A stretch of DNA of 64,000 nt, taken from assembly GCA_964596525.1 (NCBI GenBank), contig CAZQUL010000001.1:524830-588829 (forward strand). The letters are read 5' to 3'. Positions 7,118 through 28,046 of the stretch are shown piece after piece. This DNA is from an uncultured Gammaproteobacteria bacterium (GTDB lineage: Bacteria; Patescibacteriota; Patescibacteriia; Magasanikbacterales; GWA2-37-8). The stretch's first letter is position 1, and every line of letters begins with the position of its first letter. Under the pieces are notes generated by a model. It saw only the letters and a list, made by a program, of their open reading frames with translations, had not been told where the DNA came from and did not search any database. The position numbers and the translations under genes were made by a program.

Positions 7118-9910
7118 ATGCAACACCATGATTCCATAAAAATCCGCGGTGCGCGCGTGCATAACCTTAAGAATATCTCCATCGATATTCCCAAGGATAA
7201 GCTCGTCGTTATCACGGGGCTTTCCGGTTCCGGAAAGTCGAGTTTGGCGTTCGACACCATTTATGCCGAAGGCCAGCGCCGCTACGCTGAGTCTATGTCG
7301 TCGTATGCGCGCCAATTCATTGAAACGCGCGATAAACCGGATGTCGATTCCATCGAAGGACTTTCGCCGACCATCGCCATCGATCAGAAGATCTCCACCC
7401 AAAATCCGCGCTCGACGGTCGGCACCGTAACCGAGATTTACGATTTTCTCCGCTTGCTTTTCGCCCGCTCGGGTGAGCAGTACTGCCCGAATTGTGATAT
7501 TCCAGTAGACGCCAAAACCGCCGGTGAAATCATCGAAGAAGTGCGTAAGATTGCACGTAAAGAAGCCGAAATTGCCTTGTACGCCCCGCTTATCCGTTCG
7601 GCGATCGTGGAGAAAAAAGATTTGGTGGAGCGGGTTGAAAAATCCGGCTATGAATGGCTGCGTATCGACGGTGAAAAAGTGAAAATCAACAGTCTAGCGC
7701 ACTACATGTTTGAGAAGGATAAGCGCTACGATGTTGATTTACTTGTCGGCACAATCACGGATATTAAAAAGCAGGATCCGACGCATCTCGTAGAGACTGC
7801 GCTCGATTTGAGCGGTGGTTTGGTGGCCATCATCATCGGCGGCAAACCCCGCCAGGTACTCTCTACTACAGGGCTCTGCACCAAATGCGGCATGACCATG
7901 CCGATTCTCGACATGCGCAGTTTTAGTTTCAATAGCCCGTACGGCGCTTGCCAGCGTTGTACCGGTTTGGGCGTTACGCTCGAGGTTGACCCGACACTAG
8001 TCATTCCCAACCCCCGTCTCACTCTTGCCGAAGGTGCTATCCAGCCATGGACGCGCATCACCGGCAACCAGGGCTTTTATCAGAAACTCCTCGTTGCGGT
8101 TGCTGAGCGCCACAAGTTTTCGCTTACTACTCCAATCGGCGAAATGCCGGCCAAGGCACTTGATCTTATTTTGTATGGCACGGGCCAGGAAGAATACATC
8201 GTGGATAGCCGGAAAACTCAGTACAGCGGCGTCATTCCGGATCTCATGAACAAGCATCTTGATACCAACTCCGAATATGTGCGCAAAGAGATTGAACAGT
8301 ACATGCGCGAAAAAACCTGTTCGACCTGTCATGGCAAACGTTTGCGCAAGGAATCGCTTGCGGTGAAGATCGGCGATTACACTATTGCCGATATTGCCAT
8401 GATGAGCATGGAAGACATTAAAAAACTGCTCAAAACCAAGCTTAAGAATACTAAAGTTACCGATCTCATCATCCGCGAAATCGTGCCGCGCATCGAAAAT
8501 TTGGAGCGCGTCGGTTTGGGTTATCTCAACATTGATCGTTCGATGAATACCCTCTCGGGTGGCGAGGTGACGCGCGTACGCCTTGCGACCCAGCTTTCTT
8601 CGGGTTTGAGCGGTATCATCTACGTACTCGATGAACCGTCCGTAGGTTTGCACCCGCGTGACAACAAGAAACTTATTGAAACTCTCAAATATCTGCGCGA
8701 TCTCGGCAACACGGTTGTCGTTGTAGAACACGACGGTGCCATGATGCATGCTGCCGATTACCTCATTGATATCGGTCCAGGTGCCGGTGTCTACGGCGGT
8801 AAGGTGGTGGCCGAAGGCACGCTCGCTGACATCAAGAAAGCTAAGGGTTCGCTTACGGGTGACTATCTCTTTGGCCGTTCCAACCTTGGTTTGCTTAAGA
8901 AAGGCGATGGTAAAAAACCACCGGCAGATAAAGCTATCACGATCGTCGGTGCCAAAGCCCATAACCTCAAGAACATCGACGTTACTATCCCACTCGCCAA
9001 ACTGGTCTGCGTTACCGGTGTCTCTGGTTCGGGCAAATCATCGCTTATCATCGACATCTTGAGCAAGGCGCTTAGCAAGCATTTCTACCGCGCCAAAGAA
9101 GAACCGGGTGAGCACACGTCCATCAAAGGTATCTCGAATATCGATAAAGTTATCTCTATCGACCAGTCGCCGATTGGCCGCACGCCGCGCTCGAATCCGG
9201 CTACGTATACCGGCATCTTTAATCTTATCCGCGACTTGTTTGCTTCGCTTCCCGAGGCGCGCATGCGCGGTTACGATGCGGGCAAGTTCAGCTTCAACGT
9301 CAAAGGCGGTGGTCGCTGCGAAGCGTGTTCTGGTGATGGCCATATCCGCATCCCCATGCAGTTTTTGGCGGATGTATACGTAGAGTGCAACGAGTGTGCC
9401 GGTATGCGCTATAACCGCGAAGCGCTCGAGGTGCACTACCGCAATAAAAACATTGCCGATGTCCTTAAGATGACCGTCGAAGAAGCGCATCGTTTCTTCG
9501 GTGATATTCCGTCCATTTCCGAAAAACTTAATGTGCTGCGCGAAGTCGGCTTGGGCTACATCACCCTCGGACAACCGGCCACTACGCTTTCAGGTGGTGA
9601 GGCGCAACGCATCAAGCTTGCCCAAGAACTTTCGCGTCACTCTACGGGCAAAACTCTCTACATCCTCGACGAACCGACGACCGGTCTGCATTTCGAAGAT
9701 ATCAAGCGCTTGCTCCAGGTGCTCACCCAACTCGTCGACAAAGGTAATAGCGTCATCCTTATCGAACATAATACGGAAGTCATCCGCTCGTCGGATTGGA
9801 TCATTGATCTTGGTCCGGAAGGCGGTGAAGGCGGTGGTCAGGTGGTGGCCGAAGGAATGCCGGTCGAACTTCTTAAGACTAAGAAGGGTGCGACGGCGAA
9901 GTACTTGTAA
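7118..9910 (+). CDS. uvrA: Excinuclease ABC subunit A
   Basis: 930-aa product with two ABC ATPase modules ([14 protein letters not shown] and [10 protein letters not shown] Walker A; LSGGE signatures; YVLDEPS and YILDEPT Walker B) plus Zn-finger Cys clusters (CPNC, CTKCG...CQRC, CEAC...CNEC). Confidence 0.95.
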
Positions 9911-9928
9911 AATTTCTTCATCAAAAAT

Positions 9929-9963
9929 ACAACCGGAGTATCATGCTCCGGTTGTGTGTTTTA
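9929..9963 (+). terminator. Intrinsic terminator after uvrA
   Basis: acaaccggag tatcatg ctccggttgt followed by gtgtttt. Confidence 0.6.
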
Positions 9964-10046
9964 AATAGAATTTCAAATTATTTTAAAATCCCTTGACGTC
10001 AATCTTTTTTTCTGCGAATCTACCTCCCGTTGTTGAGGAGGTTCCC

Positions 10047-10613
10047 ATGTCGTGCCCCAAGTTTCTGTTCGTTCCGGCGTTTGAAATCAGGCCTGTTGAT
10101 GAGCTTGAGAATACCCGCACCCTCGCCCGACTACGTACCGCGCTTTTCTTGTGGCGCCAGGGCGACCATGAGCGCATTATCGTCTGCGGTGGTCGCTATC
10201 TCCCTCCCGCGGTGCAGCAAACACCGGCAGCCGAGCTCATGAGGGAATGGCTCATTCTGCAGGGAGTGCCCGAAGACAAGATTCTTGTTGAAGCGCATTC
10301 TACGACCACCCGCGAATCCGTCAGTTTCGCACTCGGGCTCGTGCAGCGCGTCGAGTATTCGTTGCCGGTCTCTTTTACCATCGTGAGCGACCATCCTAAT
10401 GCCGTGTGCGTATGGTTGTCGTTGCGTTTAGGGTATGGCCAGCATGCGAATATCCATGTGGTGGAATACCCGGCGGCTTACGCGATCAGTAGCGAGGAGA
10501 ACGCCGCGGCCTGGCGCAACGCGCTCCGTCATATCATGGATCCCCGTGGTGTTGGTAAGGCAGCCGTTGAGCTCGCCAGGCTCCGCCGGGAGATCGCTGC
10601 CCAATATCCGTAG
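10047..10613 (+). CDS. DUF218 (YdcF/ElyC/SanA-like) domain protein
   Basis: RIIVCGGRYLPP...TPAAELMREWLILQGVPEDKILVEAHSTTTRESVSFA matches the DUF218 consensus (GG...E...M...L...GVP...I..E..S.NTxENA). GAGGAGG lies 5-6 nt upstream of the ATG at 10047. Confidence 0.6.
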   Translation: MSCPKFLFVPAFEIRPVDELENTRTLARLRTALFLWRQGDHERIIVCGGRYLPPAVQQTPAAELMREWLILQGVPEDKILVEAHSTTTRESVSFALGLVQRVEYSLPVSFTIVSDHPNAVCVWLSLRLGYGQHANIHVVEYPAAYAISSEENAAAWRNALRHIMDPRGVGKAAVELARLRREIAAQYP

Positions 10614-10658
10614 ATCGTAGAGTTTAAAGACTTGCCCGCGGGCAAGTCTTTTGTAGCT

Positions 10659-11846
10659 CTATTTTTTTTCAGCTACAGACTGGATGACGGACGTTAGCTC
10701 GGTTGCGGCGGTAATCCAGGAGAATCGTTTTACACGTTCTTGTCCAGCACGAATAAGATGTTCCCGTGTGGAAGGTGAGTACAGAATCGTGTACAGTGCG
10801 TCCGCGAGCGTGCTGGGACGATGCGGGTCGATGTAATACGCTGCCATGCCCGCAACCTCGGGCGCTGATGAGCGGCTGCTGGTTATGATTGGGGTATCGA
10901 CAGCCATGGCTTCGAGGAGTGGAAATCCGAAGCCTTCGTACCAACTGGGGTATAGAAGCGCCTTGGCACACGCGTAGAGAGCTGGACGATCGGTGGATTC
11001 TGCGTAGCCGATGACATGTACGCGTTCGTGGAGTGCCGAGCGTAGTGTTGTTGACAGCCGTTGCATCAATTTTTCGCGTGGTGGAAATCCCGGACCGCTT
11101 AATACCAAGTGTGTTGCCATGCCGTCGTTTGGAACGGCCGCGGCAAACTCGGCAAAACCAGTTACGATTGCGGTGATATTTTTCCGTTCGTCGTAAGCGC
11201 CGACGTAGAGTACGTAATTATCGGGAAGAGCGTAACGAGTTCGAACAGCTGCTTCGTGCGTGCGGCGTTGTTCGGGCAAGAGTTTTTGGAATGCGGCAAA
11301 ATCGTGCGGCAAGCCAGGGTGAATCACGCTTACAGCCTCTGGCCTAATGCCAAACCATTCAATCACGTCATTTCTCGTGTGGTGTGAAGGGGTAATGATA
11401 TGCGTTACTTGTTGGCAGAGCCGTTTAGGATTGATGGCTCTGTGCCAGAGCCGCTGTTTAGGGGTAAGCAGCCAGGGGAAAAGCGCGAAGGAAATATCGT
11501 GGATGGTAAGAATATGTCGTTCGCCTGGCGTGATGGCTGTAAAATTGATGTTGGGTGAAAAAAAGACATCAGCCTTGCCGGTGAGCCTCGTGAGAGACGG
11601 GCGGCCGAACAAGGTGATGGCGGCGTGCAGAAGTTTGTTCGGGTAGCGGGTGGTTATGTCGCGCACGTGCGGCAGCGAGCGGAATTGTTCGAGTGCAGTG
11701 TTTTTTTTAAACGAGTTGTGGAAGAGGATATACTCGTTGGCTTCGTTGTGTGCAAAAAGAGCCCGGAGAAGTTCAGTCGTTAAGGTGCCGATACCGGTTG
11801 GAAAGGGTGTAGCCAGACAGCGCGTGTCAACGACGACGGTGGCCAT
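10659..11846 (-). CDS. Glycosyltransferase family 1 (GT4-type)
   Basis: 395-aa product. The C-terminal GT-B motif LLYPSWYEGFGFPLLEAMAVDTPIITS has the E-x7-E signature. Confidence 0.8.
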   Translation of the reverse strand: MATVVVDTRCLATPFPTGIGTLTTELLRALFAHNEANEYILFHNSFKKNTALEQFRSLPHVRDITTRYPNKLLHAAITLFGRPSLTRLTGKADVFFSPNINFTAITPGERHILTIHDISFALFPWLLTPKQRLWHRAINPKRLCQQVTHIITPSHHTRNDVIEWFGIRPEAVSVIHPGLPHDFAAFQKLLPEQRRTHEAAVRTRYALPDNYVLYVGAYDERKNITAIVTGFAEFAAAVPNDGMATHLVLSGPGFPPREKLMQRLSTTLRSALHERVHVIGYAESTDRPALYACAKALLYPSWYEGFGFPLLEAMAVDTPIITSSRSSAPEVAGMAAYYIDPHRPSTLADALYTILYSPSTREHLIRAGQERVKRFSWITAATELTSVIQSVAEKK

Positions 11847-11850
11847 ATGA

Positions 11851-12975
11851 TTACGCCAACAGTGGCTCGTGCTCCAGATTTTTTCGAAATTCCTGGTAGC
11901 GATCTTCGACGAGCTGCTTTATTGATGTTTTGAAACGGTCGGTGTCGAACTTGACCGCATGTTCGCGGATTTTGGCACTATCCCAGCTCTTGGCATCAAA
12001 ATGCAGTACCGTGTCGAGGAGTGTTTCCCAGGTTTGATCTTTGAATAACACCCCTGTTTCATTGGGGATGACGGTTTCGGCGGCACCGCCTGCTCCGTAA
12101 GCAATAACCGGGCGTCCGCTCGCCATGGCTTCGAGCGGGGTTACGCCGGCATCTTCGAGTTGTGGATGAATGAATGCTTGGGCTTTGCTCAGAAGTTCGG
12201 CCTTTTCTTTGTCGCTTATACGACCCAAAAATTCGATGTTTGGCCGCGCGAGTTTGCGCAGGCGTTCAAATTCTGGTCCGACGCCAAAGATTTTGAGCGG
12301 ATATTTAAGGCGGTTGAAGACATGGATCACTAAATCGAGCCGCTTGTAGGGCACCAGACGACCGCCAGCCACAAAATACGGTTCCACATGATCGCTTACA
12401 AAAAACGTATTGCTTGCGACGGGCGGATAAAGTACAGTGCTGTCGCGGCGGTAGTACTTGGCGATACGACGCTCCACGGTACGCGAATTGGCGATGAAGT
12501 GATCAACGCGCCCGGCGCTCGCGTGATCCCACAAGCGCAACCGGTGCAAGATAGGTTTGAGGAGAAGGGCTTTGGCAATACGGTTGTGAGGGAGCTCGGC
12601 CACGTAATCGTGAGTGTTCGACCACAGGAAACGTGTGGGTGTGTGACAGTAGGAGAGGTGGAGTGTGTGCGGCTGGGTGATAATGCCTTTGGCAAAAGCG
12701 CTCGTTGATGAAATAACCACATCAAAACCGCTCAAATCATAATGTTCGGTCGCGCTCGGCATGAGCGGGAGATACCAGGGGAAATGCGATTTGATGAACG
12801 GGAGTTTGGCCAGCCAGGATTCGTGGATGGTCGCTTGCTTGAAGTAAGGGACCTTTTCGGGGTCGTGGAAGAGCACAAAAATCGGAGCCTGCGGATACAG
12901 CTCGTGCAGGGCCACTAAGACGCGTTCGGCGCCGCCGTCTTGGGCCAGGTAGTCGTGTACGAGGGCGATGTTCAT
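11851..12975 (-). CDS. Glycosyltransferase family 1
   Basis: 374-aa product. FIHPQLEDAGVTPLEAMASGRPVIAYGAGG is a typical GT1 motif. Only a 4-nt gap separates it from the downstream GT1 gene. Confidence 0.8.
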   Translation of the reverse strand: MNIALVHDYLAQDGGAERVLVALHELYPQAPIFVLFHDPEKVPYFKQATIHESWLAKLPFIKSHFPWYLPLMPSATEHYDLSGFDVVISSTSAFAKGIITQPHTLHLSYCHTPTRFLWSNTHDYVAELPHNRIAKALLLKPILHRLRLWDHASAGRVDHFIANSRTVERRIAKYYRRDSTVLYPPVASNTFFVSDHVEPYFVAGGRLVPYKRLDLVIHVFNRLKYPLKIFGVGPEFERLRKLARPNIEFLGRISDKEKAELLSKAQAFIHPQLEDAGVTPLEAMASGRPVIAYGAGGAAETVIPNETGVLFKDQTWETLLDTVLHFDAKSWDSAKIREHAVKFDTDRFKTSIKQLVEDRYQEFRKNLEHEPLLA

Positions 12976-13061: not shown

Positions 13062-14579
13062 TCAAAGTACCCCATCCTTTTTAATTACGGCAAACGGCGT
13101 CTTAAGTATGATAATGAAATCCATGCTCAAACTCCATTGCTCCAAATAGAGCGAGTCGAGCTTGATCTCTTCTTCGAAAGAAAGGCTGCTCCGGCCGGAG
13201 ATCTGCGCCATACCGGTGAGACCGGGTTTTACAACGAGTACGATCTTATGATGGTTGTCGTAGCGGTCTACTTCGCGTGGCTGATGGGGACGGGGGCCGA
13301 CCAGGCTCATGGTCCCTTGGATGACATTGAGAAGCTGTGGTAGCTCGTCGATGCTTGTTGTGCGCAACAAGCGGCCAAGTGGCGTGACGCGGGGATCATC
13401 TTTGATTTTGTAAATCGGACCGCTTTTGATGCTTTGTTTTTTGATAAGCTCCTCTTCTTTTTTAAGGGCAGCGAGGCCGCTCGTGCCAAACTGTTCACCA
13501 GTACAGTCTTTTTGGTACATGGAGCGGAATTTGTACAGCTTGAAGAGTTTGCCTTCTTGTCCGACGCGCGTGTTGTGGTAGAGGATGGGGCGGCCAGTTT
13601 CGATAAGAATGGCGAGCGCGGTAATGAGGTAAATGGGCGAGGAAAGGATGAAAAGTACTGAACCGAGAATGATATCAATGAGTCGTTTGATGATGCCGCC
13701 CCACCCAAAGAGACGGGTGCGTTTTATTTCGACGAGCGGAATGCCGCTTACGGTAGTGATGGAAAAGTTGCTGCTGAGCGTTGAAAACAGATCGGCCGAG
13801 TATTTGAACACTAGATGCTGGTTGTGGGCTGCCTCTACGGCCCGCAAGGCTTCTTCGCTGCCGGTGCCGAAATCAGTGAAAATCACTTCGTCGACCGCGG
13901 TAGGGTCAAATAGCGTGGCCGTTTCCGCGTTGAAGCGGGGAGTGTGGGCCACCACGCGGTAGCCACGACTCGGTTCGTTCTTGAACGTTTGTTTGAGGAC
14001 TTCGGCTGCTCCGGAGTTGCCGATGATGATAACGCGCCGCACGTTTATACCAAGGCGGTAAAGTAGTGTGCGGACAAGGCGTGTAAGGATGTGCCCTGCT
14101 GTAACGAAGATGATGCCGAGTGCCCAACCGACAAGCACGAGGAAACGCGAATCAAAGCGCTGCAGGCTGAAAAAAAGATACATGGTGATGCCTGCAAACC
14201 CTACCGAAGAAGCCAGTACGATGGTAGTGATGTCGCGGGCCAGTTTGCGGTTCGCATCAATACGGTAGAGCCCGCCCAAAGCAAAAAGTATGACCCAGAT
14301 AAGAGCGATCACGAGGACGATGCCCAGGTATTCGTTCCAAGGAAGACGGAAGATGACAGGTCGCACTTCGGTGATGAAAGAAGCGAAGCGCAGATAATAA
14401 GCCGCAATACCGGCTACAACCAGCAATACGTAATCAAGCGGAACATGCCAAGCGGTAAAGGTGGTTTCAAATTTTTTCATAGGGGTAATGGCCTTATTGT
14501 ACGCTCGCTGCCATATGCCGTCAATTGCAGATATTATCTTGACAATAAGCCAAAAATACGCTAAAATCCGGACGATCAT
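13062..14579 (-). CDS. Polyprenyl-phosphate sugar transferase (bacterial sugar transferase family, WbaP/EpsB-like) with an N-terminal multi-TM domain
   Basis: The C-terminal catalytic domain [27 protein letters not shown]...[28 protein letters not shown] is diagnostic of the Bac_transf family. It heads the three-gene glycosylation cluster. The start could be the internal MKKFETTF Met (about 14479). Confidence 0.85.
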
Positions 14580-14991
14580 ACGGGGTAGCCGCTCCTGCCC
14601 AAAGCAGGGGAGGAAAGTCCGAACATTCTGGGTGACGAACGAGGTCTTGCAGTTCGCCGCTCAGTCCGCGCTTTCATGCCTCGTGAAAGCGTGGAGGTGC
14701 TGTGGGTAACACCCACCTCGCCGGTCGCAATACCGGCGACGGGACAGTGGCACAGAGACAATACTATCCCGAGCAATCGGGAGAAAGGTGAAACGTGTCG
14801 GGTCCACCCGACTCGCCGGAGCGGTAACGCTTCGGACGGCAAAACCCACCCAATGCAAGAGCAGCGCGCCGGTTCATCCGGCAGCGAAAAGTTCGCTCGC
14901 TTGAGGAGTGCGGTAACGCACTTCCTAGATAAATGGTTACCTCTTCCGCTTCGGCGGAAAAGACAGAATTCGGCTTATACGTATGATCACC
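14573..14991 (+). ncRNA. rnpB: RNase P RNA (bacterial type A-like)
   Basis: Conserved elements read directly: GGAAAGTCCGAACA (the P4 5' strand consensus is GGAAAGTCCGGGCT), gGGTAACACCC, ACAGAGACAATACTATCCCGAGCAA, GGTGAAACG, GGTAACGC, and ACAGAATTCGGCTTATAcgtatg closing a P1 helix with 5' catacg. A strong terminator follows at 14992-15028. Confidence 0.8.
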
Positions 14992-15028
14992 CTACCACCC
15001 TCTTCTAAAAGAGGGTGGTAGTTTTTTA
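14992..15028 (+). terminator. Intrinsic terminator after rnpB
   Basis: ctaccaccctctt ctaa aagagggtggtag has a perfect 13-bp stem followed by ttttttat. Confidence 0.7.
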
Positions 15029-16110: not shown

Positions 16111-17211
16111 ATGTGGCGTGAACGTTTAAGCAAATTTTCCCCGCGCAGTTTTGACTGGGTCTTGGTTGGCGCAGTGCTTCTTCTTATGGCGCTTGGCCTA
16201 GCGGCAATATACAGCGTTGATTTGTCGCGCGATGTGACGCTTAATTTATTCCGCAAGCAGTTTATCGCCGCGGTGGTCGGCCTGACCGGGCTCGCGGTTG
16301 TAAGCACCTTCCAACCTTCGTGGTTTCGCAGTTCGGCCAAGATGGTGTATGCCGGTGCGGTGCTTGCTCTTGTTGCGGTACTTATTTTTGGCAGCGAGAT
16401 TCGTGGTACCAAAGGCTGGTTTGCGCTACCAGGTTTTTCTTTTCAGCCGGTCGAGTTCGCCAAGGCCGGCGTTATTTTGATACTGGCGGCAATTGCCGGT
16501 AAGTGGGGGCGACGATTCGACCGCATCGTTTTTATTTTTGGCACGGGTTTTTTTATCGCTTTGCCGGCGGGGCTCGTGCTCCTTCAGCCGGATTTGGGCT
16601 CTGCGCTCCTCTTGGTGGCGATATGGTTTGGGATGTTGTGGTTGGCTGGGGTCCGGCTGCGCTATATTGGCGCGATTGTTGCGGTGGGGGCATTGGCGGG
16701 TGTGGCAGCCTGGTTTGTCTATCTTAATCCGTTGCAAAAAGCGCGCCTCACCACGTTTATTGATCCCTATGCCGATCCGACGCGCAACGGTTATAACGTT
16801 ATCCAGTCCATGATCGCGGTTGGTTCGGGCAGTTGGTTTGGTAAAGGCATTGGCCAGGGATCGCAGAGTCAGCTCAGATTTTTGCCCGAAGCGCAAACCG
16901 ACTTTATTTTTTCGGTTATCGCTGAGGAGCTTGGTTTCGTGGGAGCGGTAGCTACATTGGTATTGTTTGGTGTGGTGCTGTGGCGTCTTACGGTCATTAT
17001 GGCGCGGGCGGCGGATGATTTTTCGGCTCTCACGGTCGGAGGCGTAGCGCTTCTGTTTTTCATCCAAGGGTTCGTTAATATCGGTGCGGAAATCGGGATT
17101 TTACCGCTCACAGGTGTAACCGTGCCGTTCGTCAGTTACGGTGGTTCATCGCTTGTCATTAATTTGCTACTTATCGGTGTGGTAGAGTGCATGGTGCCGA
17201 AAAAATATTAA
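16111..17211 (+). CDS. SEDS-family peptidoglycan glycosyltransferase (RodA/FtsW/SpoVE)
   Basis: 366-aa polytopic protein. The ALPGFSFQPVEFAK, QLRFLPEAQTDFIFSVIAEELGF and PFVSYGGSSL blocks are conserved SEDS signatures. Confidence 0.85.
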   Translation: MWRERLSKFSPRSFDWVLVGAVLLLMALGLAAIYSVDLSRDVTLNLFRKQFIAAVVGLTGLAVVSTFQPSWFRSSAKMVYAGAVLALVAVLIFGSEIRGTKGWFALPGFSFQPVEFAKAGVILILAAIAGKWGRRFDRIVFIFGTGFFIALPAGLVLLQPDLGSALLLVAIWFGMLWLAGVRLRYIGAIVAVGALAGVAAWFVYLNPLQKARLTTFIDPYADPTRNGYNVIQSMIAVGSGSWFGKGIGQGSQSQLRFLPEAQTDFIFSVIAEELGFVGAVATLVLFGVVLWRLTVIMARAADDFSALTVGGVALLFFIQGFVNIGAEIGILPLTGVTVPFVSYGGSSLVINLLLIGVVECMVPKKY

Positions 17212-17217
17212 CTAGAA

Positions 17218-17245
17218 AAGCCGAGGCAGATCCTCGGCTTATTGA
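17218..17245. terminator. Bidirectional intrinsic terminator
   Basis: aaaGCCGAGGcagatCCTCGGCttatt sits between convergent genes. Confidence 0.65.
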
Positions 17246-17248
17246 AGG

Positions 17249-17899
17249 TTACCAGAGATAGTGAGCAAAAAAACGGCGAGAACGCTGCCTGAGGGACGGT
17301 GTGACCATGAATCGTTTCACGCGGTAGCGCCGGGCATCGGTCACGCGTCGGTCAACGAGCATGGTCACGTCAGTGGGCGCCTGACCGGCATTGTCGGTGA
17401 GGGTAATCACGAAGTAATGGTTGTGTTCGTCGCTTTTCACGTAGCGCCAGCAGGGTGGGATCCGCTCGAGCATGTTCTGGTGGTGCAAGGAGAGTTGCCC
17501 GACTTCTCCCGGGGTGCTCGAGAGATTGTTGAAGGCGAGGGTATAGCTCGCATTATCGAGATGGGTGAGAATATCACGCACTCTTTGGTTAAGACGTATG
17601 GCCGCGGGCGGCATCACATCATTCGCAATGGTGACGATGTGGCCTTGGGCAATGGTCTCGGTGTCCAGGTCAAACGTCCGGCGTGTGAGGGCGGTCACGA
17701 TCGTGCCGCCAATGAGCGTGACATATCGGTAGAATGTATTGCCGTCGCGAATTTTTTCTGAGCGCCATAGGGCGTTTTTTATTTCTTGCGCACTGAGCGG
17801 GATGGATACGAAACCGCGCTCGCGACTGCGCGCGAGGGCCTGCTCAACATGTTCCTGAAAAGCCCGGTCGAAGTGTTCGCTTATGGTGCCGTTGATCAT
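17249..17899 (-). CDS. Hypothetical protein
   Basis: The ORF is open to 18010, but GGAGGACACAACCC precedes the Met of MINGTISEHF at about 17899, giving a 217-aa product. No recognised domain. Confidence 0.45.
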   Translation of the reverse strand: MINGTISEHFDRAFQEHVEQALARSRERGFVSIPLSAQEIKNALWRSEKIRDGNTFYRYVTLIGGTIVTALTRRTFDLDTETIAQGHIVTIANDVMPPAAIRLNQRVRDILTHLDNASYTLAFNNLSSTPGEVGQLSLHHQNMLERIPPCWRYVKSDEHNHYFVITLTDNAGQAPTDVTMLVDRRVTDARRYRVKRFMVTPSLRQRSRRFFAHYLW

Positions 17900-18041
17900 G
17901 GGTTGTGTCCTCCAAAAGGAAGTACGAAACGTAATGATTATCGACGTGCAGCTCGTTGTCAAGATAGGTGTGCGTATAAAAACAAAGCAGCGCCGGGAAC
18001 CTTGGGCCACAGAGTGGTTAGGTTTCCGGCGCAGGGGCTGG

Positions 18042-18359
18042 CTAGTGCCGCCGCACCTCGAGGACGTCGTAAGCCACGATGTCCTCGTCGCGGAAGCTCA
18101 TGGTGCCCTCGTCGAAGTGGCTGACCTGCACGGTCAGGCTGAGCGCCAGGGTGCGGTGCGGGATGCGGGTGTCGGCGGCTACGCCGGTCACCATCACTCC
18201 GTCGCTCGAGCGGTGCGTCTCGTGCCAGTCGAGTTCGGCAAGGGCCTCGATGACGCCGAGCTGGTGGGGCCAGGTTCCGACCGGGATCGAGGTGAGGCTC
18301 TCACGACGGGCCAGGTTCTGGAGGGCGGTGTTGATGTCGTTTCCGAAGATCTGGGACAT
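18042..18359 (-). CDS. Small hypothetical protein (105 aa), paralog of 18625..18930; high-GC island
   Basis: AAGGAG RBS 6 nt upstream. The ...LTSIPVGTWPHQLGVIEALAELDW... segment aligns with ...LQSMLPNGLDLQLHFFEGLWETPEKTW... of the neighbour. Local GC is about 62-68%. Confidence 0.55.
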   Translation of the reverse strand: MSQIFGNDINTALQNLARRESLTSIPVGTWPHQLGVIEALAELDWHETHRSSDGVMVTGVAADTRIPHRTLALSLTVQVSHFDEGTMSFRDEDIVAYDVLEVRRH

Positions 18360-18485
18360 GTCTGGCTCCTTGCGATCGGTGGCGCTCGTATGAGCAGGAA
18401 AGAACGGCTCAGGTCAGCGAGCCGCGGCGGACGCAACGGACTATATATAGTCCGGTACATTCACCGCATCTCGACGTGACTAAAA

Positions 18486-18514
18486 ACAATATCAAATCTT
18501 TTGATGTTTGTCAA
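18486..18514 (-). promoter_or_regulatory. Sigma70-like promoter (TTGACA - 17 nt - TATTGT) for the 18042..18359 gene; shares a catatcTTGACAAA core with two other sites
   Basis: The minus-strand sequence reads gagcatatcTTGACAaacatcaaaagatttgaTATTGTttttag. Confidence 0.45.
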
Positions 18515-18552
18515 GATATGCTCATTACGTGTGAGGCGGCAGTATTTTTTGG

Positions 18553-18595
18553 CTAAAATAAAAACCACCAGCCCCGCGTATGCGGTAGCTGGTGT
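18553..18595 (-). terminator. Intrinsic terminator after the 18625..18930 gene
   Basis: On the minus strand a CACCAGC/GCTGGTG stem is followed by TTTTTATTTT. Confidence 0.5.
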
Positions 18596-18624
18596 GGTGG
18601 TGGGGCTTGTGGCCCCGACGGCGT

Positions 18625-18930
18625 TTACGAGACGAGCTGCTTGAGCTCCGACTCGCGGCCGATCCAGGCCACGACCGGCTGCGTCCCCGGCGTCTCGGCG
18701 ATGACGAGGAAGTACAAGCCCAGGTCACCGTCCTCAGCCTGGGCCACGGTCAGCTTGGTGCCCTTGAGCACGCCGACCTTCTCAGGCGCGATGCTCCAGG
18801 TCTTCTCCGGGGTCTCCCAGAGACCCTCGAAGAAGTGCAGCTGGAGGTCGAGGCCGTTGGGCAGCATCGACTGCAGGCGGGCCTTGTTGGTGTTGCGGAG
18901 AGCGGCGATGACGAACTCTTCGATTTTCAT
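18625..18930 (-). CDS. Small hypothetical protein (101 aa), paralog of 18042..18359; high-GC island
   Basis: GGGAGGAATC-ATG gives an RBS. GC is about 65-68%. Both genes are flanked by AT-rich promoter/terminator DNA. Confidence 0.55.
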   Translation of the reverse strand: MKIEEFVIAALRNTNKARLQSMLPNGLDLQLHFFEGLWETPEKTWSIAPEKVGVLKGTKLTVAQAEDGDLGLYFLVIAETPGTQPVVAWIGRESELKQLVS

Positions 18931-18979
18931 GATTCCTCCCTGGTTGACGTCCGTGCAGAGTGCACGGTGGGTAGCTCTA

Positions 18980-19008
18980 CACGTACCTTATTTTAGCAAT
19001 TTTGTCAA
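18980..19008 (-). promoter_or_regulatory. Sigma70-like promoter (TTGACA - 17 nt - TACGTG), near-identical to the promoter at 28018..28046
   Basis: The minus strand reads gatccTTGACAaaattgctaaaataaggTACgtg. The copy at 28018-28046 reads atatcTTGACAaaacagctaaaataaggTACatt. Confidence 0.45.
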
Positions 19009-19119
19009 GGATCTAGCTCTATTTTAGGCTTATTTTAACATCAATTCTCAAATCAAAAAGGATTGTGCTCTTAGCTTGCGCGTGATAGCCTTAAGAAACA
19101 CCTATTTCTAAGTCCGTGT

Positions 19120-21450
19120 ATGCCATTTCATCTTTCCTCGGCCTATAAACCCTCTGGTGACCAACCTAAAGCCATCGACGATCTTGCTGCCGGGCTTACC
19201 AAAGGTTTTAAAAAACAAACTCTGCTTGGCGTTACCGGTTCGGGTAAGACCTTCACCATGGCGAACGTCATTGCGCGCGTCCAGAAGCCGACGCTCGTCA
19301 TTGCCCACAACAAAACCCTCGCCGCGCAGCTCTGCAACGAATTCCGCGAATTTTTTCCCAAAAACGCGGTGGAATATTTCGTGTCGTACTACGATTACTA
19401 CCAGCCTGAAGCGTACATGCCAGGCTCGGACACGTATATCGAAAAAGAAGCGCAGGTTAACGAAGAGATCGACCGCTTGCGGCATGCCTGCACGCAGGCG
19501 CTTTTGACGCGTGACGACGTGATTATCGTCGCGTCCGTCTCCGCGATCTATGGTTTGGGTTCACCCAAAGAATACGAAAAAATTGTTCTCCACCTCAACG
19601 TCGGCGACGAGCTGGATCGCCGCGGCATGATGGAGCGGCTCATTGAGATGCAGTTTGAACGCACCAACTCTGACTTGCGCCGTGGCACCTTCCGCATGCA
19701 CGGCCAGATTTTCGAGATCATGCCGGTGAACGAGGAGTTCATCTATCGTTTTGAGATCGGCAATCGCATTGAGCGGATCGATCGCATCAATCCCGTGACG
19801 CGAAAATCCACACTTCAGGTGCAATCGCTCGAAGACGCGTGGTTCTTTCCGGCCAAGCATTACGTGGCGTCGCCTGAAGCGCGAGAGCGGGCGTTTTCGT
19901 CCATCAAACAAGAGCTAGCCGAGCAGCTCGCTGTTTTTGAAAAACAAGGCAAGGTTTTGGAGTATGAACGCCTCAAACGGCGCGTCAGTTACGATCTCGA
20001 GATGATCAAGAATCTCGGTTATTGCAACGGCATCGAAAATTATTCGCGTCATTTTGAAGGCCGGGCTGCGGGCGAACCTTCGTTCACGCTTTTGGATTAT
20101 TTCTTGCATTCTTCAGGCCGTGCCCTGGGAGATCGTGATTCTAAAAACGGAGGGATTGCTTCGCTACCGCTCGCAATGACAGAGAATGGCGGAGGCTATC
20201 TCACGATCATCGATGAATCGCACGTTACTATTCCGCAGCTCCAGGGCATGTACAACGGCGATCGGGCGCGCAAAGATACGCTTGTTGAACACGGCTTTCG
20301 GCTTCCGAGTGCGCGCGACAACCGACCGCTCCGCTATGAAGAATTCGAAGCACGCACCGAACAGGTGGTGTACGTTTCTGCAACACCGAGTAAGTACGAG
20401 ATCGGGGAAAGCGCGCAGGTCGTGGAGCAGGTCGTGCGCCCGACCGGTCTTGTCGATCCCGAAGTCATTGTTAAACCAATTACTCCTGGCCATACGGTCA
20501 TTGCGAGGAGGGACGAAGGAATGACAAAGCAATCCCCCAAACCCACTTCGGACTCTGATGGTAAAGTTAGCTCCGATAACGAAGGGATTGCTTCGTCCTC
20601 CGCTGCGCTTCGTCCTCGCAATGACGGTGAAAGTAGCCTTTCCCAGATTGATGATCTTTTGATTCGTATTCAGGAACGTATCAAGATCAACGAGCGCATC
20701 CTCGTGACGACGCTCACCAAAAAAATGGCCGAAGATCTCACCGAATTTTTGCAGGAGAAAAAAATCAAGGTCAAATACCTGCACAGCGATATCGATACCA
20801 TCGAGCGCATCGAGGTGATTACGGATTTGCGTCTCGGTAAGATCGACGTGATCGTCGGCGTAAACCTTTTGCGTGAAGGTTTGGACATGCCCGAAGTTTC
20901 GCTCGTCGCGATTCTCGATGCCGACAAAGAAGGGTTTCTCCGCAGTGAAACCTCACTCATTCAGACTATCGGCCGCGCAGCGCGCAACGTGAACGGTCAG
21001 GTCGTCTTGTACGCCGATGAGATTACCGGCTCGATGGAACGCGCTATTAAAGAAACCGAACGACGTCGTGCGATCCAGCTTGCGTATAACAAAGAACACG
21101 GCATTACGCCCAAAACGATTCAGAAAGCCATCCGCAACATGCTGGAAGAGTTTGGTTTGTCCACTAAAGAAGATCGTGAGATTAAAACCAAAAAAGCCCG
21201 CTCTGGCAGTCGGGGTAGTGTGACGGATTTAGATATCTTAGGCGACAACCGGCCGCTCAAAGAAATCATCAAAGATAAAGAAAACCAGATGAAAGAAGCG
21301 GCTCAGAAACTCGAGTTTGAACTCGCGGCGATTTTACGCGATGAGTTGCGTGAGCTGCGGGCGCGTGAGAAAAGCATGGAAAAAAGCGGCAGCCGTTCGA
21401 AGCAGAAAGGGGCAAAAATCACTCTTACAAAACCGGAAGACTTATCGTAA
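19120..21450 (+). CDS. uvrB: Excinuclease ABC subunit B with two in-frame insertions
   Basis: 776-aa product. GVTGSGKTFTMANVI is the Walker A. The beta-hairpin region, DESHVTIPQ, helicase motifs and the C-terminal UvrC-interaction coiled coil (ELRELRAREK) are present. It is about 100 aa longer than typical UvrB because of insertions at about 20110-20200 and 20470-20640. Confidence 0.95.
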   Translation: MPFHLSSAYKPSGDQPKAIDDLAAGLTKGFKKQTLLGVTGSGKTFTMANVIARVQKPTLVIAHNKTLAAQLCNEFREFFPKNAVEYFVSYYDYYQPEAYMPGSDTYIEKEAQVNEEIDRLRHACTQALLTRDDVIIVASVSAIYGLGSPKEYEKIVLHLNVGDELDRRGMMERLIEMQFERTNSDLRRGTFRMHGQIFEIMPVNEEFIYRFEIGNRIERIDRINPVTRKSTLQVQSLEDAWFFPAKHYVASPEARERAFSSIKQELAEQLAVFEKQGKVLEYERLKRRVSYDLEMIKNLGYCNGIENYSRHFEGRAAGEPSFTLLDYFLHSSGRALGDRDSKNGGIASLPLAMTENGGGYLTIIDESHVTIPQLQGMYNGDRARKDTLVEHGFRLPSARDNRPLRYEEFEARTEQVVYVSATPSKYEIGESAQVVEQVVRPTGLVDPEVIVKPITPGHTVIARRDEGMTKQSPKPTSDSDGKVSSDNEGIASSSAALRPRNDGESSLSQIDDLLIRIQERIKINERILVTTLTKKMAEDLTEFLQEKKIKVKYLHSDIDTIERIEVITDLRLGKIDVIVGVNLLREGLDMPEVSLVAILDADKEGFLRSETSLIQTIGRAARNVNGQVVLYADEITGSMERAIKETERRRAIQLAYNKEHGITPKTIQKAIRNMLEEFGLSTKEDREIKTKKARSGSRGSVTDLDILGDNRPLKEIIKDKENQMKEAAQKLEFELAAILRDELRELRAREKSMEKSGSRSKQKGAKITLTKPEDLS
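20146..20200 (+). repeat. Short inverted-repeat motif (gggattgcttcg ... ctcgcaatgac) inserted in-frame in uvrB, copy 1
   Basis: ggagGGATTGCTTCGctaccgCTCGCAATGACagagaatgg encodes the extra peptide ...SKNGGIASLPLAMTENGGG..., which is absent from canonical UvrB. Confidence 0.5.
20524..20640 (+). repeat. Second in-frame uvrB insertion carrying the same motif (gaaGGGATTGCTTCG ... CTCGCAATGAC) plus an inverted partial copy (aaGCAATCCC)
   Basis: acaaaGCAATCCCcc lies at about 20527 and gaaGGGATTGCTTCGtcctccgctgcgcttcgtcCTCGCAATGACggtgaaag at 20581-20637. It encodes ...SDNEGIASSSAALRPRNDGES..., inserted between the helicase domain and the conserved QIDDLL block. Confidence 0.5.
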
Positions 21451-22813: not shown

Positions 22814-22999
22814 GCCTTTTTTATGACGAGCCCCCGACGGGGCTCTTTAGTTTTCGCCAGTGCAACCGTTCTTGACTCAAGCCTTGGCATCTTTTATAAT
22901 CCTTCGTTAGCCGTTTTTCGGTGTGATCGTGCGCGTCTCACGAAATGCGGTTTAACCTACTGCCGAGACCGTCAACAGCCCAAGCCAAAGAGGTGGATT

Positions 23000-24157
23000 A
23001 TGACCTTTGACCTCGAGTCGTTCGAAGAGTGGTGCGCGGCCGGGCGCATCTCGTTTCCCGATCTGTATACTAGTCTAACAGTCGATGCAAACGGCTGCTC
23101 CTTGGTTGGACCACTGCGGGTTGCTGACTCAGTAGGAGCTGATCTTTTCAGTCGTTATCCGCGAGCGGTCGAAAAACTTTTAGGCGTTCCGTTGGTAGAT
23201 TTCATCGAGCGGGAAGATTATGGTCGTGAGCGATCGCTTTTGGTGCAGCTCGCGATTGCAAATGCTGCGCTCTTTACCTACTTCGTCCGGCCGACGCAGT
23301 ATGGACGGCTGGTCACGCTCATGCTCGCGTGTGGATTCCTCTTGCATGCTGCAGCGGATTTTGTGCGGCGCCAGCTGCCGCGGTCGTTTGTGGCTGCTTT
23401 CATTGAGCGTGCCATCGCCGGAGGAAGAACCCTTCCGAGCGATTATCTCTTCAGCGACCGGTACTGGAAGCGTTCAGGTTCCTTCCTTAATGTCCTGTCG
23501 GCAAAGGAGCTCAAGCCGATCCTGTTGGCGGCAGTGAAACGAACGCCCCAGGCTGCGCTTGAGCATTGCTCCAGTATTATGAAACGGTTGGGCAAAGAAC
23601 TGGCCAGCGAAGTGCTCGCTGCGGCGATCGACGCTGCCTCGGGTGAAGAAATGGCCAGAACTCATGACCTGATGGCTTTGTCGCTAGATCTGCAGTTTCG
23701 GTACCTGGCTGTTCTTGACAGGTCGGAACAAATCAATAATCTGGAGTGGCTGCTCCGGCTCTGGAGTGCTGCTGAGGAGCGTCGCGAGCGTGAGCTTCTC
23801 GAGCGCGTTCTCGGGCGGTACCAGAACGTGGTTGTCCTCTGTCAGATGTGCGCCGAGCTTGAGGAGAAGAAGTGGGCACCCGCCGCGGCCACCGCCTACT
23901 GCGCCCGTGTGGCCGAGACGCGAGGTTATCTCATCGGCGAAGCCCGTCGGATGGACGAAGGATCCTCAGTGCGATTCGAAGTCCGCACGTCCGACGGAAC
24001 GGTGTACGTTCACGACCCGCTGGCGCACGTTCCGGATGGCTTCCGCGATCGTGATATCGTCATGTTCAACCGCCGCGCCCGCGTCCTGCAAGCGCCTCGC
24101 AACGGCGCTCCGTACTTTCACGTCAAGTTCAATCTCGTCATGCGCCGATTGAACTAG
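23000..24157 (+). CDS. Hypothetical cytoplasmic protein (385 aa), paralog of 24369..25502
   Basis: The C-terminal block YLIGEARRMDEGSSVRFEVRTSDGTVYVHDP...DIVMF aligns with YLFGQVSTSLFRGRLQYQVQLGGNVYIHNP...DTVVF in the next gene. The track ORF starts at 22823, but the ATG at 23000 is more plausible. Confidence 0.5.
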   Translation: MTFDLESFEEWCAAGRISFPDLYTSLTVDANGCSLVGPLRVADSVGADLFSRYPRAVEKLLGVPLVDFIEREDYGRERSLLVQLAIANAALFTYFVRPTQYGRLVTLMLACGFLLHAAADFVRRQLPRSFVAAFIERAIAGGRTLPSDYLFSDRYWKRSGSFLNVLSAKELKPILLAAVKRTPQAALEHCSSIMKRLGKELASEVLAAAIDAASGEEMARTHDLMALSLDLQFRYLAVLDRSEQINNLEWLLRLWSAAEERRERELLERVLGRYQNVVVLCQMCAELEEKKWAPAAATAYCARVAETRGYLIGEARRMDEGSSVRFEVRTSDGTVYVHDPLAHVPDGFRDRDIVMFNRRARVLQAPRNGAPYFHVKFNLVMRRLN

Positions 24158-24368: not shown

Positions 24369-25502
24369 ATGTCGCTTGATGCCGGTATGTTGCGTGAGAA
24401 GCTTTGCAATGGATCGCTTACCCTCCTCGAGCTGGCTGAAGCCCTGCATACCTCTAAGCAGGGGGAGCGGATCTGGGAAATCGACATGGACAACGGATCG
24501 GTCATGTACGAACTGTGCGAGGAGTATCCCGAGAAGCTCGCCGCGCTCGTCGGCGCGGATCCGGTTGCGTACGTACTCGGGCATCCGGACAAGCGGGATC
24601 GGAAGGATTTAATGGGGATCTTTCTTACCGAGAAGATCTTTCCACACGTCGTACCGGAAGCGACCTGGGAAAAGGTCGTTGCCTTTCTCTACGACTACGA
24701 CGGTATCGTCGATGCGGCCACAGCCTACATCGCCCGCGGCCTCGACCGGCGCTTCGCCGTGCAGTGCCTGCTTACCGGGATTGAGCGTAATACGGATGGC
24801 ATCCTCTTAACCCTGCTCGATGAGGGGATCGGACTGCAGTACTGGACGAATAGAGAGTTTTGTCTCGGCATCCTCGATCCTCAGCATCGCGCTCGGGTGG
24901 TTCAGACCGTGGTCGAGCATTTTCCCAAAGCTGCACTTCTCAACCGGAATGTGTTGCTTACGGTAACCAAAGAAGATCGCCTGCGTGACATGATTGGTGC
25001 TGCCTTCAATAAAGTAGAAGACTACGACGGTCTGGCGCGCGAGGATTTGGCTTGGTTGCCGATCAGGACACAGTACGAGATCCTTCACAAGATCGAACCC
25101 CAGCCGTCGCTCAGAGTGGATTGTGCCTGGCTCATCGCGCTCTACGACAAGGTCTCTCCGACTCGCCAGACGATCATTCGGAGCGTACTTGGCCGCACGT
25201 CAATCAAGAAGCTCCTCCCGGTGCTCAAGACGTTTGCCTCGCCACATCCCCACCTTAAGACTTACTGTATCGATCGGTGTGTCAAAGAAGGTTATCTTTT
25301 CGGCCAGGTCAGCACTAGTTTGTTTCGTGGTCGCTTGCAGTACCAAGTGCAGCTTGGTGGCAACGTGTATATCCATAATCCGGAGGCCACAATGAGTCAC
25401 ATCCTCATGGCGGGGGACACGGTTGTCTTTAAGACACCTGCCAAACCCCTCGGCTATGGAGCGGCCAGCCGTAAATTCCTTGTCACCTTTATTCCCGCCT
25501 AG
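24369..25502 (+). CDS. Hypothetical cytoplasmic protein (377 aa), paralog of 23000..24157
   Basis: Shares the C-terminal module described for its neighbour. No signal peptide. Confidence 0.5.
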   Translation: MSLDAGMLREKLCNGSLTLLELAEALHTSKQGERIWEIDMDNGSVMYELCEEYPEKLAALVGADPVAYVLGHPDKRDRKDLMGIFLTEKIFPHVVPEATWEKVVAFLYDYDGIVDAATAYIARGLDRRFAVQCLLTGIERNTDGILLTLLDEGIGLQYWTNREFCLGILDPQHRARVVQTVVEHFPKAALLNRNVLLTVTKEDRLRDMIGAAFNKVEDYDGLAREDLAWLPIRTQYEILHKIEPQPSLRVDCAWLIALYDKVSPTRQTIIRSVLGRTSIKKLLPVLKTFASPHPHLKTYCIDRCVKEGYLFGQVSTSLFRGRLQYQVQLGGNVYIHNPEATMSHILMAGDTVVFKTPAKPLGYGAASRKFLVTFIPA

Positions 25503-26764: not shown

Positions 26765-28006
26765 CTAGTTCGAGATGACCACATTGCCCCGGATCGGGGT
26801 GGTAAAGAGCGCGGGGTCGCAGCCCCGGGGCACCGTCTGGCCGTTGATGCCGTCGGTGAAGGTGCAGTCGATGAGATCGGCCGACAGCGTGCTCGGCACG
26901 TTCGGGATGCGGTCAAAGGTACTCCCGGTGCCGAAGGCGATCAAGAACGTCCGCCCCTTCGTGGTAAGCGGTACTCCCGCGGTCAGCGCATCACCCGGCA
27001 GCGCGACCTGCTGCATCCTAGCCCCCTCGAAGGTGTTCTGGCCGGCCTGGAAATCCCGGATCTTGATTTCGCCTTCGCCCACCTTGACGGTGGCGCACGG
27101 GTTGAACTCGTCGGTGACGTAGATGCCGTAGGGCAGGTAGTCGTTCGCCGGGTCGACGCCGGTTACGCGCCAGATGAACTGGAGCGCCTTGATCGTGCTC
27201 GATGACCCGTCCGACGACGGAAGGCCGACGAAGTCGAAGCCGCTCGCCCGTGCAATCGGCGCAACCGTCTGCGTGGAATAGCCGCCCGGAACGTTCTGCG
27301 CGGCGGCGATCGCGAACGTGTTCTTGAAGAGCTCCACGCTCCGGATCCCCGACGGGTAGGTGATGACCGCCGGGTACGTCCGCTTGCTCGTGAGTCCGTA
27401 CAGCATCGCGCCGACCACGCGCGCCTCGCCGATGATGCTGCGGGTGTCGGTGTGCCAGCTGCTTTGGGACAGATTGTCCCAGGTGTTGGCGCTGGCTACG
27501 GACTCAAGCGGCATCTCGTTGCCCGCAGGGATCTGGAGCGTCGACAGAAGCTGGTTCCATTCCATCGTCGTGTCGGAAGCGGCGTTTGCGGGCAGATCCT
27601 GACCGTTGGCAATCGCAGTCTCCCCAGCCTTGATACGGTAGTTCACGAAGCCGTTGTAGGCGGGGACGGTCGGTTCCTGCTTCACGCGCGAGCTCACTGC
27701 GAGCTTGAGCGAAATGATCTGCGTGGCCTCGTCCGTCGCCCCCTTGATCGAGCTCTGCCCGAACCTCACGTTCTGCGTGCCCATCGGGACGTAGTTCACA
27801 TCGGAGTTCTGCGCGACGACTGCAGGCTGGTAGACGCACCGGTTCGGCAGGGTGTCCGGCATCTGCGGTGCGTTCGTCGTCGCGGTTCCTTCGCCGCAGG
27901 CCATGAGGGACAGTGCAAAGGAGAAGCTGAGGCCCCGAAAAAGCTCTTGTTCTGGGGCATGGTCACTCCTTGGAAATCCTGAGTTTTCAAAAACGCCATG
28001 AAACAC
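26765..28006 (-). CDS. Large secreted lipoprotein-like hypothetical protein, high GC; the 5' end is ambiguous
   Basis: 413-aa ORF beginning at a GTG, with a lipobox-like ...FRGLSFSFALSLMACGEG. A canonical AAGGAG-N6-ATG exists but is one frame off, which suggests a possible frameshift at a T5 run (see findings). GC is about 62-66%. Confidence 0.55.
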   Translation of the reverse strand: MFHGVFENSGFPRSDHAPEQELFRGLSFSFALSLMACGEGTATTNAPQMPDTLPNRCVYQPAVVAQNSDVNYVPMGTQNVRFGQSSIKGATDEATQIISLKLAVSSRVKQEPTVPAYNGFVNYRIKAGETAIANGQDLPANAASDTTMEWNQLLSTLQIPAGNEMPLESVASANTWDNLSQSSWHTDTRSIIGEARVVGAMLYGLTSKRTYPAVITYPSGIRSVELFKNTFAIAAAQNVPGGYSTQTVAPIARASGFDFVGLPSSDGSSSTIKALQFIWRVTGVDPANDYLPYGIYVTDEFNPCATVKVGEGEIKIRDFQAGQNTFEGARMQQVALPGDALTAGVPLTTKGRTFLIAFGTGSTFDRIPNVPSTLSADLIDCTFTDGINGQTVPRGCDPALFTTPIRGNVVISN

Positions 28007-28017: not shown

Positions 28018-28046
28018 AATGTACCTTATTTTAGCTGTTTTGTCAA
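28018..28046 (-). promoter_or_regulatory. Sigma70-like promoter (TTGACA - 17 nt - TACATT), near-identical copy of 18980..19008
   Basis: The minus strand reads ggtgatatcTTGACAaaacagctaaaataaggTACATTgtacc. Confidence 0.45.

Follow-up and report, generated by a model that had tools for sequence, protein, structure and literature searches.

What are the small genes that lie, in very guanine-plus-cytosine (GC)-rich DNA, between a SEDS-family gene and uvrB in this chromosome, and how could they have come to be there? The stretch analysed here, called the window throughout, comprises 64 kb of a Candidatus Magasanikbacteria-like genome of the candidate phyla radiation (CPR, Patescibacteria), a lineage assigned from the similarity of the flanking genes. 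The SEDS-uvrB interval measures 1,908 bp and holds three minus-strand open reading frames (ORFs), P1, P2 and P3, which together are referred to as the islet. The reading that we favour, with a probability of roughly 60%, is that the islet consists of recently acquired foreign, very GC-rich coding sequences, kept as autonomous expression cassettes in the manner of phage morons. The genes concerned are listed below, with GC3 denoting the GC content at third codon positions and sizes given in amino acids (aa).

16111..17211, plus strand: SEDS gene (FtsW/RodA), the left core flank (Pfam FTSW_RODA_SPOVE, E 6.7e-94)
17249..17899, minus strand: P3, orphan gene, 216 aa, GC3 0.68, with an Arg-rich basic C-terminus (ORF list; Logan contig call)
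18042..18359, minus strand: P2, orphan gene, 105 aa, acidic, GC3 0.92 (ORF list, codon analysis)
18625..18930, minus strand: P1, orphan gene, 101 aa, acidic, GC3 0.92-0.93 (ORF list, codon analysis)
19120..21450, plus strand: uvrB, the right core flank (Pfam UvrB, UvrB_inter, Helicase_C and UVR domains)

An original prediction, made on this DNA before the present analysis, had named SEDS and uvrB as the flanks, and Pfam confirms both. The two minus-strand ORFs that it had placed at 18042..18359 (105 aa) and 18625..18930 (101 aa) exist, and an independent gene caller concurs on a Logan contig. Its extent for the islet is borne out for P1 and P2, but its coordinates cut off the third orphan, P3 (17249..17899). 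The gene caller of the public collection found all three genes on that Logan contig, a 4,041-bp sequence assembled separately from a single run; the contig matches window positions 16891-20931 with 100% identity and spans both junctions. The islet junctions are therefore not an assembly artefact. P1, P2 and P3 are all antisense to SEDS and uvrB, and for this reason are insulated from these core genes, with uvrB diverging from P1 in its direction of transcription.

The composition of the islet is the first line of evidence for a foreign origin. The mean GC content of the window is 0.527, with a standard deviation of 0.047 among 300-nt windows. When measured in 200-nt windows, GC rises to 0.64-0.69 across 18000-18400 and 18600-18900, peaking at 0.68-0.69 in P2 and 0.68 in P1, and goes down to 0.48 between the two genes and to 0.42-0.43 at 18900-19200, on the uvrB side. 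The GC jump with AT-rich gene boundaries described in the original prediction is thereby confirmed. Besides the coding sequences, the high GC takes in the P2 leader and the terminators, whereas the promoter segments have 35-43% GC.

Codon position analysis gave GC values at first, second and third positions (GC1/GC2/GC3) of 0.63/0.37/0.92 for P1 and 0.66/0.42/0.92 for P2. The background GC3 of the 44 other genes in the window is 0.60 +/- 0.06 (range 0.48-0.74), which places P1 and P2 each at z = 5.1, and the flanks stand at 0.57 (SEDS) and 0.60 (uvrB). When the same two proteins were re-encoded with host codon usage, GC3 came to 0.59 +/- 0.046, from which the observed values depart with z = 7.5 and 6.9. 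Usage indistinguishable from the background had been put forward beforehand as the outcome that would speak against acquisition; what was found, 0.92 versus 0.60 +/- 0.06, is decisively unlike it. P3, with its GC3 of 0.68, displays a mild elevation only. The pattern GC1 > GC2 << GC3 is seen in the annotated minus-strand frame only, which shows that P1 and P2 evolved as protein-coding sequence exposed to a strong pull towards GC. Host genes, including those for S6, SSB and S18, favour GAA (68-77%) and AAA (63%), whereas P1 and P2 together use GAG in 15 of 17 cases and AAG in 6 of 7, with GAT at 0/11 and TTT at 0/7. P2 contains no Lys and 8 Arg, and the bias is thus seen at the protein level too. 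It is not the host's own bias exaggerated, as the purine-ending choices are opposite.

The second line of evidence is the layout, in which each gene carries signals of its own. The promoters and terminators of P1, P2 and P3 are sequence predictions, and they are given here with the leaders (UTR, untranslated region; SD, Shine-Dalgarno sequence; MFE, minimum free energy).

18983..19008, minus strand: P1 predicted promoter element TTGACAAAATTGCTAAAATAAGGTAC, with a perfect -35 TTGACA and a weak -10 TACGTG at 17-nt spacing
18935..18967, minus strand: P1 5' UTR, with hairpin CCGTGCA-ctc-TGCACGG at 18951-18967 and SD GGGAGG at 18935-18940 (sequence reading)
18555..18616, minus strand: P1 predicted intrinsic terminator, two hairpins followed by UUUUUAUUUU (fold, centroid -31.7 kcal/mol, z -2.35)
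18486..18514, minus strand: P2 predicted promoter TTGACA-17-TATTGT with an upstream TG (extended -10), 10/12 consensus matches
18360..18479, minus strand: P2 5' leader of ~120 nt, with a long hairpin, a terminator-like hairpin at 18404-18425 and SD AAGGAG at 18366-18371
17976..18032, minus strand: P2 predicted intrinsic terminator, stem GCGCCGG.AACC...GGUUC.CCGGCGC then UGCUUUGUUUUUAU (MFE -29.7 kcal/mol, z -2.7)
17934..17962, minus strand: P3 promoter-like site TTGACA-17-AATCAT, 10/12 consensus matches
17218..17240, minus strand: P3 terminator hairpin, 7 nt past the SEDS stop codon, AAGCCGAGGATCTGCCTCGGCTT then TTCT, with a 9-bp stem

The strong SD sequences claimed for P1 and P2 are indeed present, with GGGAGG 4 nt and AAGGAG 6 nt before the ATG, respectively, and P3 has GGAGGA 8 nt before its ATG. 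Neither P1 nor P2 has a hydrophobic N-terminus, which agrees with the earlier statement that signal peptides are lacking. The TTGACA-type promoter proposed for each gene holds for P2, a sigma70-type site with 10/12 matches, and holds in part for P1, whose perfect -35 is followed by a weak -10. As this -10 at 17-nt spacing is only TACGTG, the P1 promoter is less certain and was not called by the consensus scan. A hairpin plus U-run does follow P1 as predicted, but the upstream gene alone had been credited with a terminator, and P2 has one also. A native reference for these sites is provided by the RNase P RNA gene rnpB (class A, 162 bits), located at 14573-14993 (+), whose promoter TTGACA-17-TAAAAT at 14539-14567 is the best sigma70-like site in the first 20 kb. 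In the ranking of this region, rnpB (11/12) and P2 and P3 (10/12) constitute the top three sites, and the rnpB promoter has its ATCTTGACAA context in common with the islet promoters.

The P2 leader has a predicted fold of -51 kcal/mol (z -3.0) that contains an inverted repeat. The tip of its long hairpin is a perfect palindrome, CGGACTATATATAGTCCG, unique in the window, and a comparison of the leaders with Rfam gave no family match. Within 18404-18480 (-), the 3' strand of the stem in the long 5' hairpin shares nucleotides with the 5' strand of the terminator-like hairpin at 18404-18425, which is followed by UCUUUCCU. This overlap would allow mutually exclusive folds, similar to those of an attenuator.

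A further observation concerns the P1 promoter element, which is identical at 24 of 26 nt to positions 28021-28046 (-), upstream of an unrelated 413-aa gene; such a pair was found in 0/100 shuffles. The sequence common to both upstream regions, TTGACAAAAnnGCTAAAATAAGGTAC, stands in each case where the gene diverges from a housekeeping gene (P1 from uvrB, the 413-aa gene from ksgA), and it may represent either a promoter that was duplicated or an operator that serves both genes. Propagated or "mobile" promoters, in which near-identical promoter segments lie upstream of unrelated genes, are known in prokaryotes. The sharing of 24/26 nt between P1 and an unrelated gene of high GC3 is like these. 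Unlike them, the element is putatively a promoter and/or an operator, has two copies only within the 64 kb, and found no match in IMG/VR or in JGI metagenome contigs.

The third line of evidence comes from a synteny comparison, for which 160 related loci were fetched, 15 of them retaining the SEDS-uvrB pairing. The gap between the two genes is 2-180 bp in 7/15 loci, while the other 8/15 contain unrelated content of 0.4-3.1 kb. Since SEDS and uvrB are adjacent in relatives, P1-P3 represent an insertion between them, and since eight other loci carry unrelated inserts, the junction is an insertion hot spot. The inserts of relatives comprise a 200-aa ORF, a 264-aa ORF, a 152-aa ORF, six genes in one locus, or DNA without ORFs; no similarity was found among them or to the P1-P3 islet, and relatives of P1, P2 or P3 are present in 0/160 loci. 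By eye only, the 200-aa ORF resembles RibB and the 264-aa ORF resembles VanX. The SEDS protein of the window is at most 62% identical to that of any of the 160 relatives, nearly all of which are labelled Magasanikbacteria or Patescibacteria, and no relative above ~60% SEDS identity, by which the insertion might be dated, was found among GTDB genomes and JGI metagenomes.

Taken together, the 1.9-kb SEDS-uvrB interval would be an insertion islet in a Ca. Magasanikbacteria-like chromosome, probably made up of three unrelated orphans, each a self-contained unit with a putative sigma70-type promoter, a structured 5' UTR, an SD, a coding sequence and an intrinsic terminator. P1 and P2 seem to have acquired their form as coding sequence where mutation pressed strongly towards GC, and for that reason they would most likely derive, by recent horizontal transfer, from a high-GC source as yet unsampled, be it a cell or a mobile element, and may have yet to drift towards host composition. 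The units would then behave like phage morons, that is, as add-on cassettes expressed independently of their neighbours. Horizontal acquisition and a modular promoter-gene-terminator layout had both been put forward in the original prediction, and foreign composition, layout and the insertion seen by synteny support them.

Bacterial chromosomes are known to carry small genomic islets of ORFan genes that were acquired horizontally. The present case is like them in its atypical GC3 and codon usage, its absence from the syntenic site of relatives, its lack of homologues and its lineage-variable junction. It is unlike them in that integrase, tRNA and direct-repeat hallmarks are missing here, in its CPR host, in the very GC-rich, unameliorated donor signal, and in that every gene is monocistronic. 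Among the usual marks of a horizontally acquired islet, deviant codon usage and syntenic absence were found, while a donor or homologues, and mobility genes or repeats, were not. The locus is best described as a probable islet of ORFan genes acquired by horizontal transfer, with units that resemble morons.

Phage morons are defined by their own promoter and terminator, by insertion between genes that are adjacent in relatives, by deviant composition and by a phage setting (PMC4378225). The islet genes are likewise single coding sequences with their own predicted promoter and terminator (for P1, a perfect -35 only), they lie between genes adjacent in relatives (gap of 2-180 bp in 7 loci), and the composition of P1 and P2 is unlike that of their neighbours (0.92 versus 0.57 for SEDS and 0.60 for uvrB), with P3 marginal (0.68). 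In contrast, the setting is a cellular core region (SEDS, uvrB, rnpB) without PHROG or phage tblastn match, three units are stacked in a row, and the promoter regions are host-like. The islet therefore has three of the four moron features and lacks the fourth, because of its cellular setting; in the way it works it resembles a moron, but it is not one. Integron cassettes are promoterless and rely on a common Pc promoter, unlike the islet genes, each of which has its own promoter-like site and terminator, and the hairpins after the islet genes are followed by U-runs and are terminator-like.

Several points weigh against the acquisition of foreign cassettes. To begin with, no donor is visible. 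A word-index search of 5.8 billion clustered proteins returned P1, P2 and P3 themselves only, a full HMMER phmmer search of P2 alone against 1.84 billion representatives gave nothing real, and phages (by tblastn), plasmids and IMG/VR contained nothing credible. The sole other phmmer match of P2, P0006, was rejected as spurious, being a translated 54-aa tandem repeat, and the single IMG/VR match as a chance 8-mer seed, EDGDLGLY, within a 772-aa protein. GTDB genomes held nothing credible for P2, none of the three proteins had a match above threshold in Pfam, NCBIfam, PADLOC or PHROGs, and a PDB sequence search found no match. The donor among Actinobacteria suggested in the original prediction is unsupported, because no donor of any kind is visible and no homologue was found in any taxon searched. 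A literature search returned nothing on the sequencing run or on GC islands in Magasanikbacteria.

Other points concern the locus itself. No recombinase-sized gene lies between the flanks that might serve as a mobility gene, and a search for flanking direct repeats or a target-site duplication found only chance-level repeats of <=13 nt. The promoters look host-like, given the ATCTTGACAA context in rnpB and the duplication of the P1 element elsewhere in the genome, and the neat joining of foreign coding sequences to native-looking signals is hard to account for. Host codon usage was defined from only 64 kb of a 1.34-Mb genome. The AlphaFold2 single-sequence models of P1 and P2 are too poor for use, with mean predicted local distance difference test (pLDDT) values of 51 and 46, and a Foldseek comparison of these same models with the PDB gave no match at E<=0.001. 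Finally, we infer the expression of P1-P3 and the roles of their products, as well as the recency of the transfer.

The alternative that survives best, although unlikely, is that the ORFs are decaying relics of imported DNA, with P1 as a remnant of some ~90 residues from the N-terminus encoded by a foreign NagA-like amidohydrolase gene; the ORFs would then stay open only because stops are few in GC-rich sequence. It draws on a tblastn search of P1 against plasmids, which found a single match, with 34% identity across 94 aa at E 0.05. The match is in the reading frame of a NagA-like amidohydrolase of Microvirga ossetica (Pfam Amidohydro_1) and covers its residues 20-113. A Nitratireductor homologue, 60% identical to this amidohydrolase, aligns weakly to P1 in the same register (E 0.27), and in the reciprocal search of the window P1 was the sole match (E 1.7e-5). 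The total lack of homologues fits fragments or fast decay, and the other frames of the region are also without stops. However, against a 13-sequence NagA profile P1 scored -2.4 bits, no better than shuffles (182 of 1000 were at least as good), the E value of 0.05 is lost after correction for ~8 tblastn searches, and no further NagA-like fragment occurs downstream of P1. With 101 aa, P1 does not have the TIM-barrel length of ~380 aa, with metal ligands, that is expected of the family, and its resemblance is a pairwise one to a single member. Each ORF, moreover, has an ATG with a well-spaced SD and a stop from a few to ~10 nt before its terminator, which would be unexpected for random fragments. 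We consider it somewhat improbable that the similarity to a NagA-like N-terminus is real; if so, P1 would be a gene fragment.

Less probable still is that the genes are native and lineage-specific, and that their extreme GC3 arises from selection or local mutational bias tied to very high expression. The consensus-like promoters and strong SD sites of the islet would suit such an origin, as would the raised preference for C-ending codons in S6/SSB/S18 (TAC 13/14, AAC 9/11, CGC 19/26) and the high GC3 of other orphans in the window (0.79 and 0.84). This is opposed by the choice of GAG and AAG in P1 and P2 where host genes, S6/SSB/S18 among them, take GAA and AAA, by the GC3 of only 0.61-0.74 in S6, SSB and S18, by the extension of the bias to the protein level (P2 without Lys), and by the absence of P1-P3 from the syntenic site in all relatives.

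It is very improbable that P1 and P2 are two tandem paralogues acting as a functional pair, be it toxin-antitoxin, immunity or regulatory. The two were called clearly homologous in the original prediction, but BLASTP gives no alignment at E<=100. The best Smith-Waterman score is 34, against 24 +/- 4 for shuffles (p ~0.03), in a register that differs from that of the proposed shared motif, and the motif itself requires a gap (LQSMLP in P1 versus LTSIP in P2). By these comparisons P1 and P2 are not copies of each other, and P3 has no similarity to P1 or P2 (BLASTP, and Smith-Waterman with shuffles). The pair is alike in size (101 and 105 aa), both proteins are acidic, and the genes are adjacent on the same strand, as two ~100-codon genes of a type II toxin-antitoxin system would be; the low-confidence models of both show N-terminal helices and then C-terminal strands, too weak a likeness to argue for a common fold. 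Against this, the 265-bp spacer holds a terminator and a separate promoter, so that P1 and P2 are not an operon and would not be co-transcribed, which contradicts the toxin-antitoxin-like module suggested beforehand. No toxin-antitoxin, immunity or defence match was found for them in Pfam, NCBIfam, PADLOC or PHROGs, and no toxin or antitoxin domain. The only match to a toxin-antitoxin family is that of P3 to the RelB antitoxin, with E 0.13 and 12 bits versus a cut-off of 50. No immunity-family profile (SUKH/Imm) matched P1 or P2 above the Pfam threshold, and neither P3 nor the other neighbours checked has a toxin domain.

Chimeric assembly, or contaminating DNA of a GC-rich organism that occurs together with this one, would be another source of the high-GC segments. 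The idea is invited by a metagenome-derived genome and a composition sharply unlike its surroundings, but it can practically be discarded, as the GC shifts coincide with the coding-sequence boundaries of P1 and P2, alternating with AT-rich promoters, and the Logan contig is identical over 4041 bp across both flanks.

Should the acquisition of moron-like cassettes be right, the islet would be a clean case in which a reduced CPR genome imported genes very recently, at a variable junction. The foreign codon signature could help to name the donor, perhaps the organism that hosts Magasanikbacteria, once combined with the full genome and co-occurring bins. The products of P1-P3 are uncharacterised orphans, and the value of the islet is that of a lead for whole-genome follow-up, which bears on no long-standing question yet. 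As to function, a weakly held guess is that these small, acidic, cytoplasmic alpha+beta proteins bind a partner, as inhibitor or immunity-type accessories, rather than perform catalysis.

Two larger orphan genes of the window also have a foreign-looking GC3, one at 1835-3283 (+), encoding 482 aa (GC3 0.79), and the other at 26765-28006 (-), encoding the 413 aa mentioned above (GC3 0.84). Neither has a Pfam match or a tblastn match in plasmids. The 482-aa protein has a Gln-rich linker and a putative signal peptide at its N-terminus, an LMAC motif in the 413-aa protein resembles a lipobox, and both genes are apparently monocistronic, with TTGACA promoters. In the 413-aa gene, the ATG at 27960 (-) that follows an SD does not share the frame of the ORF, whose sole in-frame initiation codon, GTG, is at 28006, right where transcription is predicted to begin; a frameshift, an error in sequencing or a leaderless start may explain the mismatch. 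With P1 and P2, these two genes bring the candidates for a class of high-GC orphans to at least 4 in 64 kb. It is a long shot, but the CPR bacterium might hold a whole class of unameliorated, very GC-rich orphans on consensus host-type promoters, some of them copied, which would point to a recurrent capture route from a high-GC partner or its mobile elements. If this were true, such genes could be used to identify the host of Magasanikbacteria.

A number of smaller observations were made at the SEDS-uvrB junction of relatives. In four of them, stretches of 400-600 bp that are poor in ORFs contain GC-rich segments (L082 7084-7691, L003 9087-9678, L004 3337-3848 and L026 9084-9492); nothing in them was recognised by Rfam or ARAGORN, and they are not mutually alignable. 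The first of these, in L082, bears on its minus strand a motif, GGTTCAAGTCC, that is reminiscent of tRNAs. The six-gene locus, L008, has a 3.1-kb insert at 9084-12223 with low-GC, minus-strand genes, some of which resemble GNAT, Nudix and MazG proteins by eye only. This insert is bounded by 43-bp direct repeats and ~100-bp inverted repeats, which give a hint of the route by which such inserts arrive.

Elsewhere in the window, a true tandem paralogous pair of orphans is found 4 kb downstream of the islet, at 22823-24157 (+) and 24369-25502 (+), encoding 444 and 377 aa. Their products align by BLASTP with E 1e-14 and 21% identity over 325 aa; they have no Pfam match, and no relative in 80 related loci. 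The product of the flanking uvrB, at 776 aa, is longer than the matches of relatives. Inside the gene, at 20494-20628, inverted repeats are nested in frame, ACGGTCATTGCGAGGA...TCCTCGCAATGACGGT on the outside and GACAAAGCAATCCC/GGGATTGCTTCGTC within; the arrangement looks like a palindromic repeat element inserted into the coding sequence.

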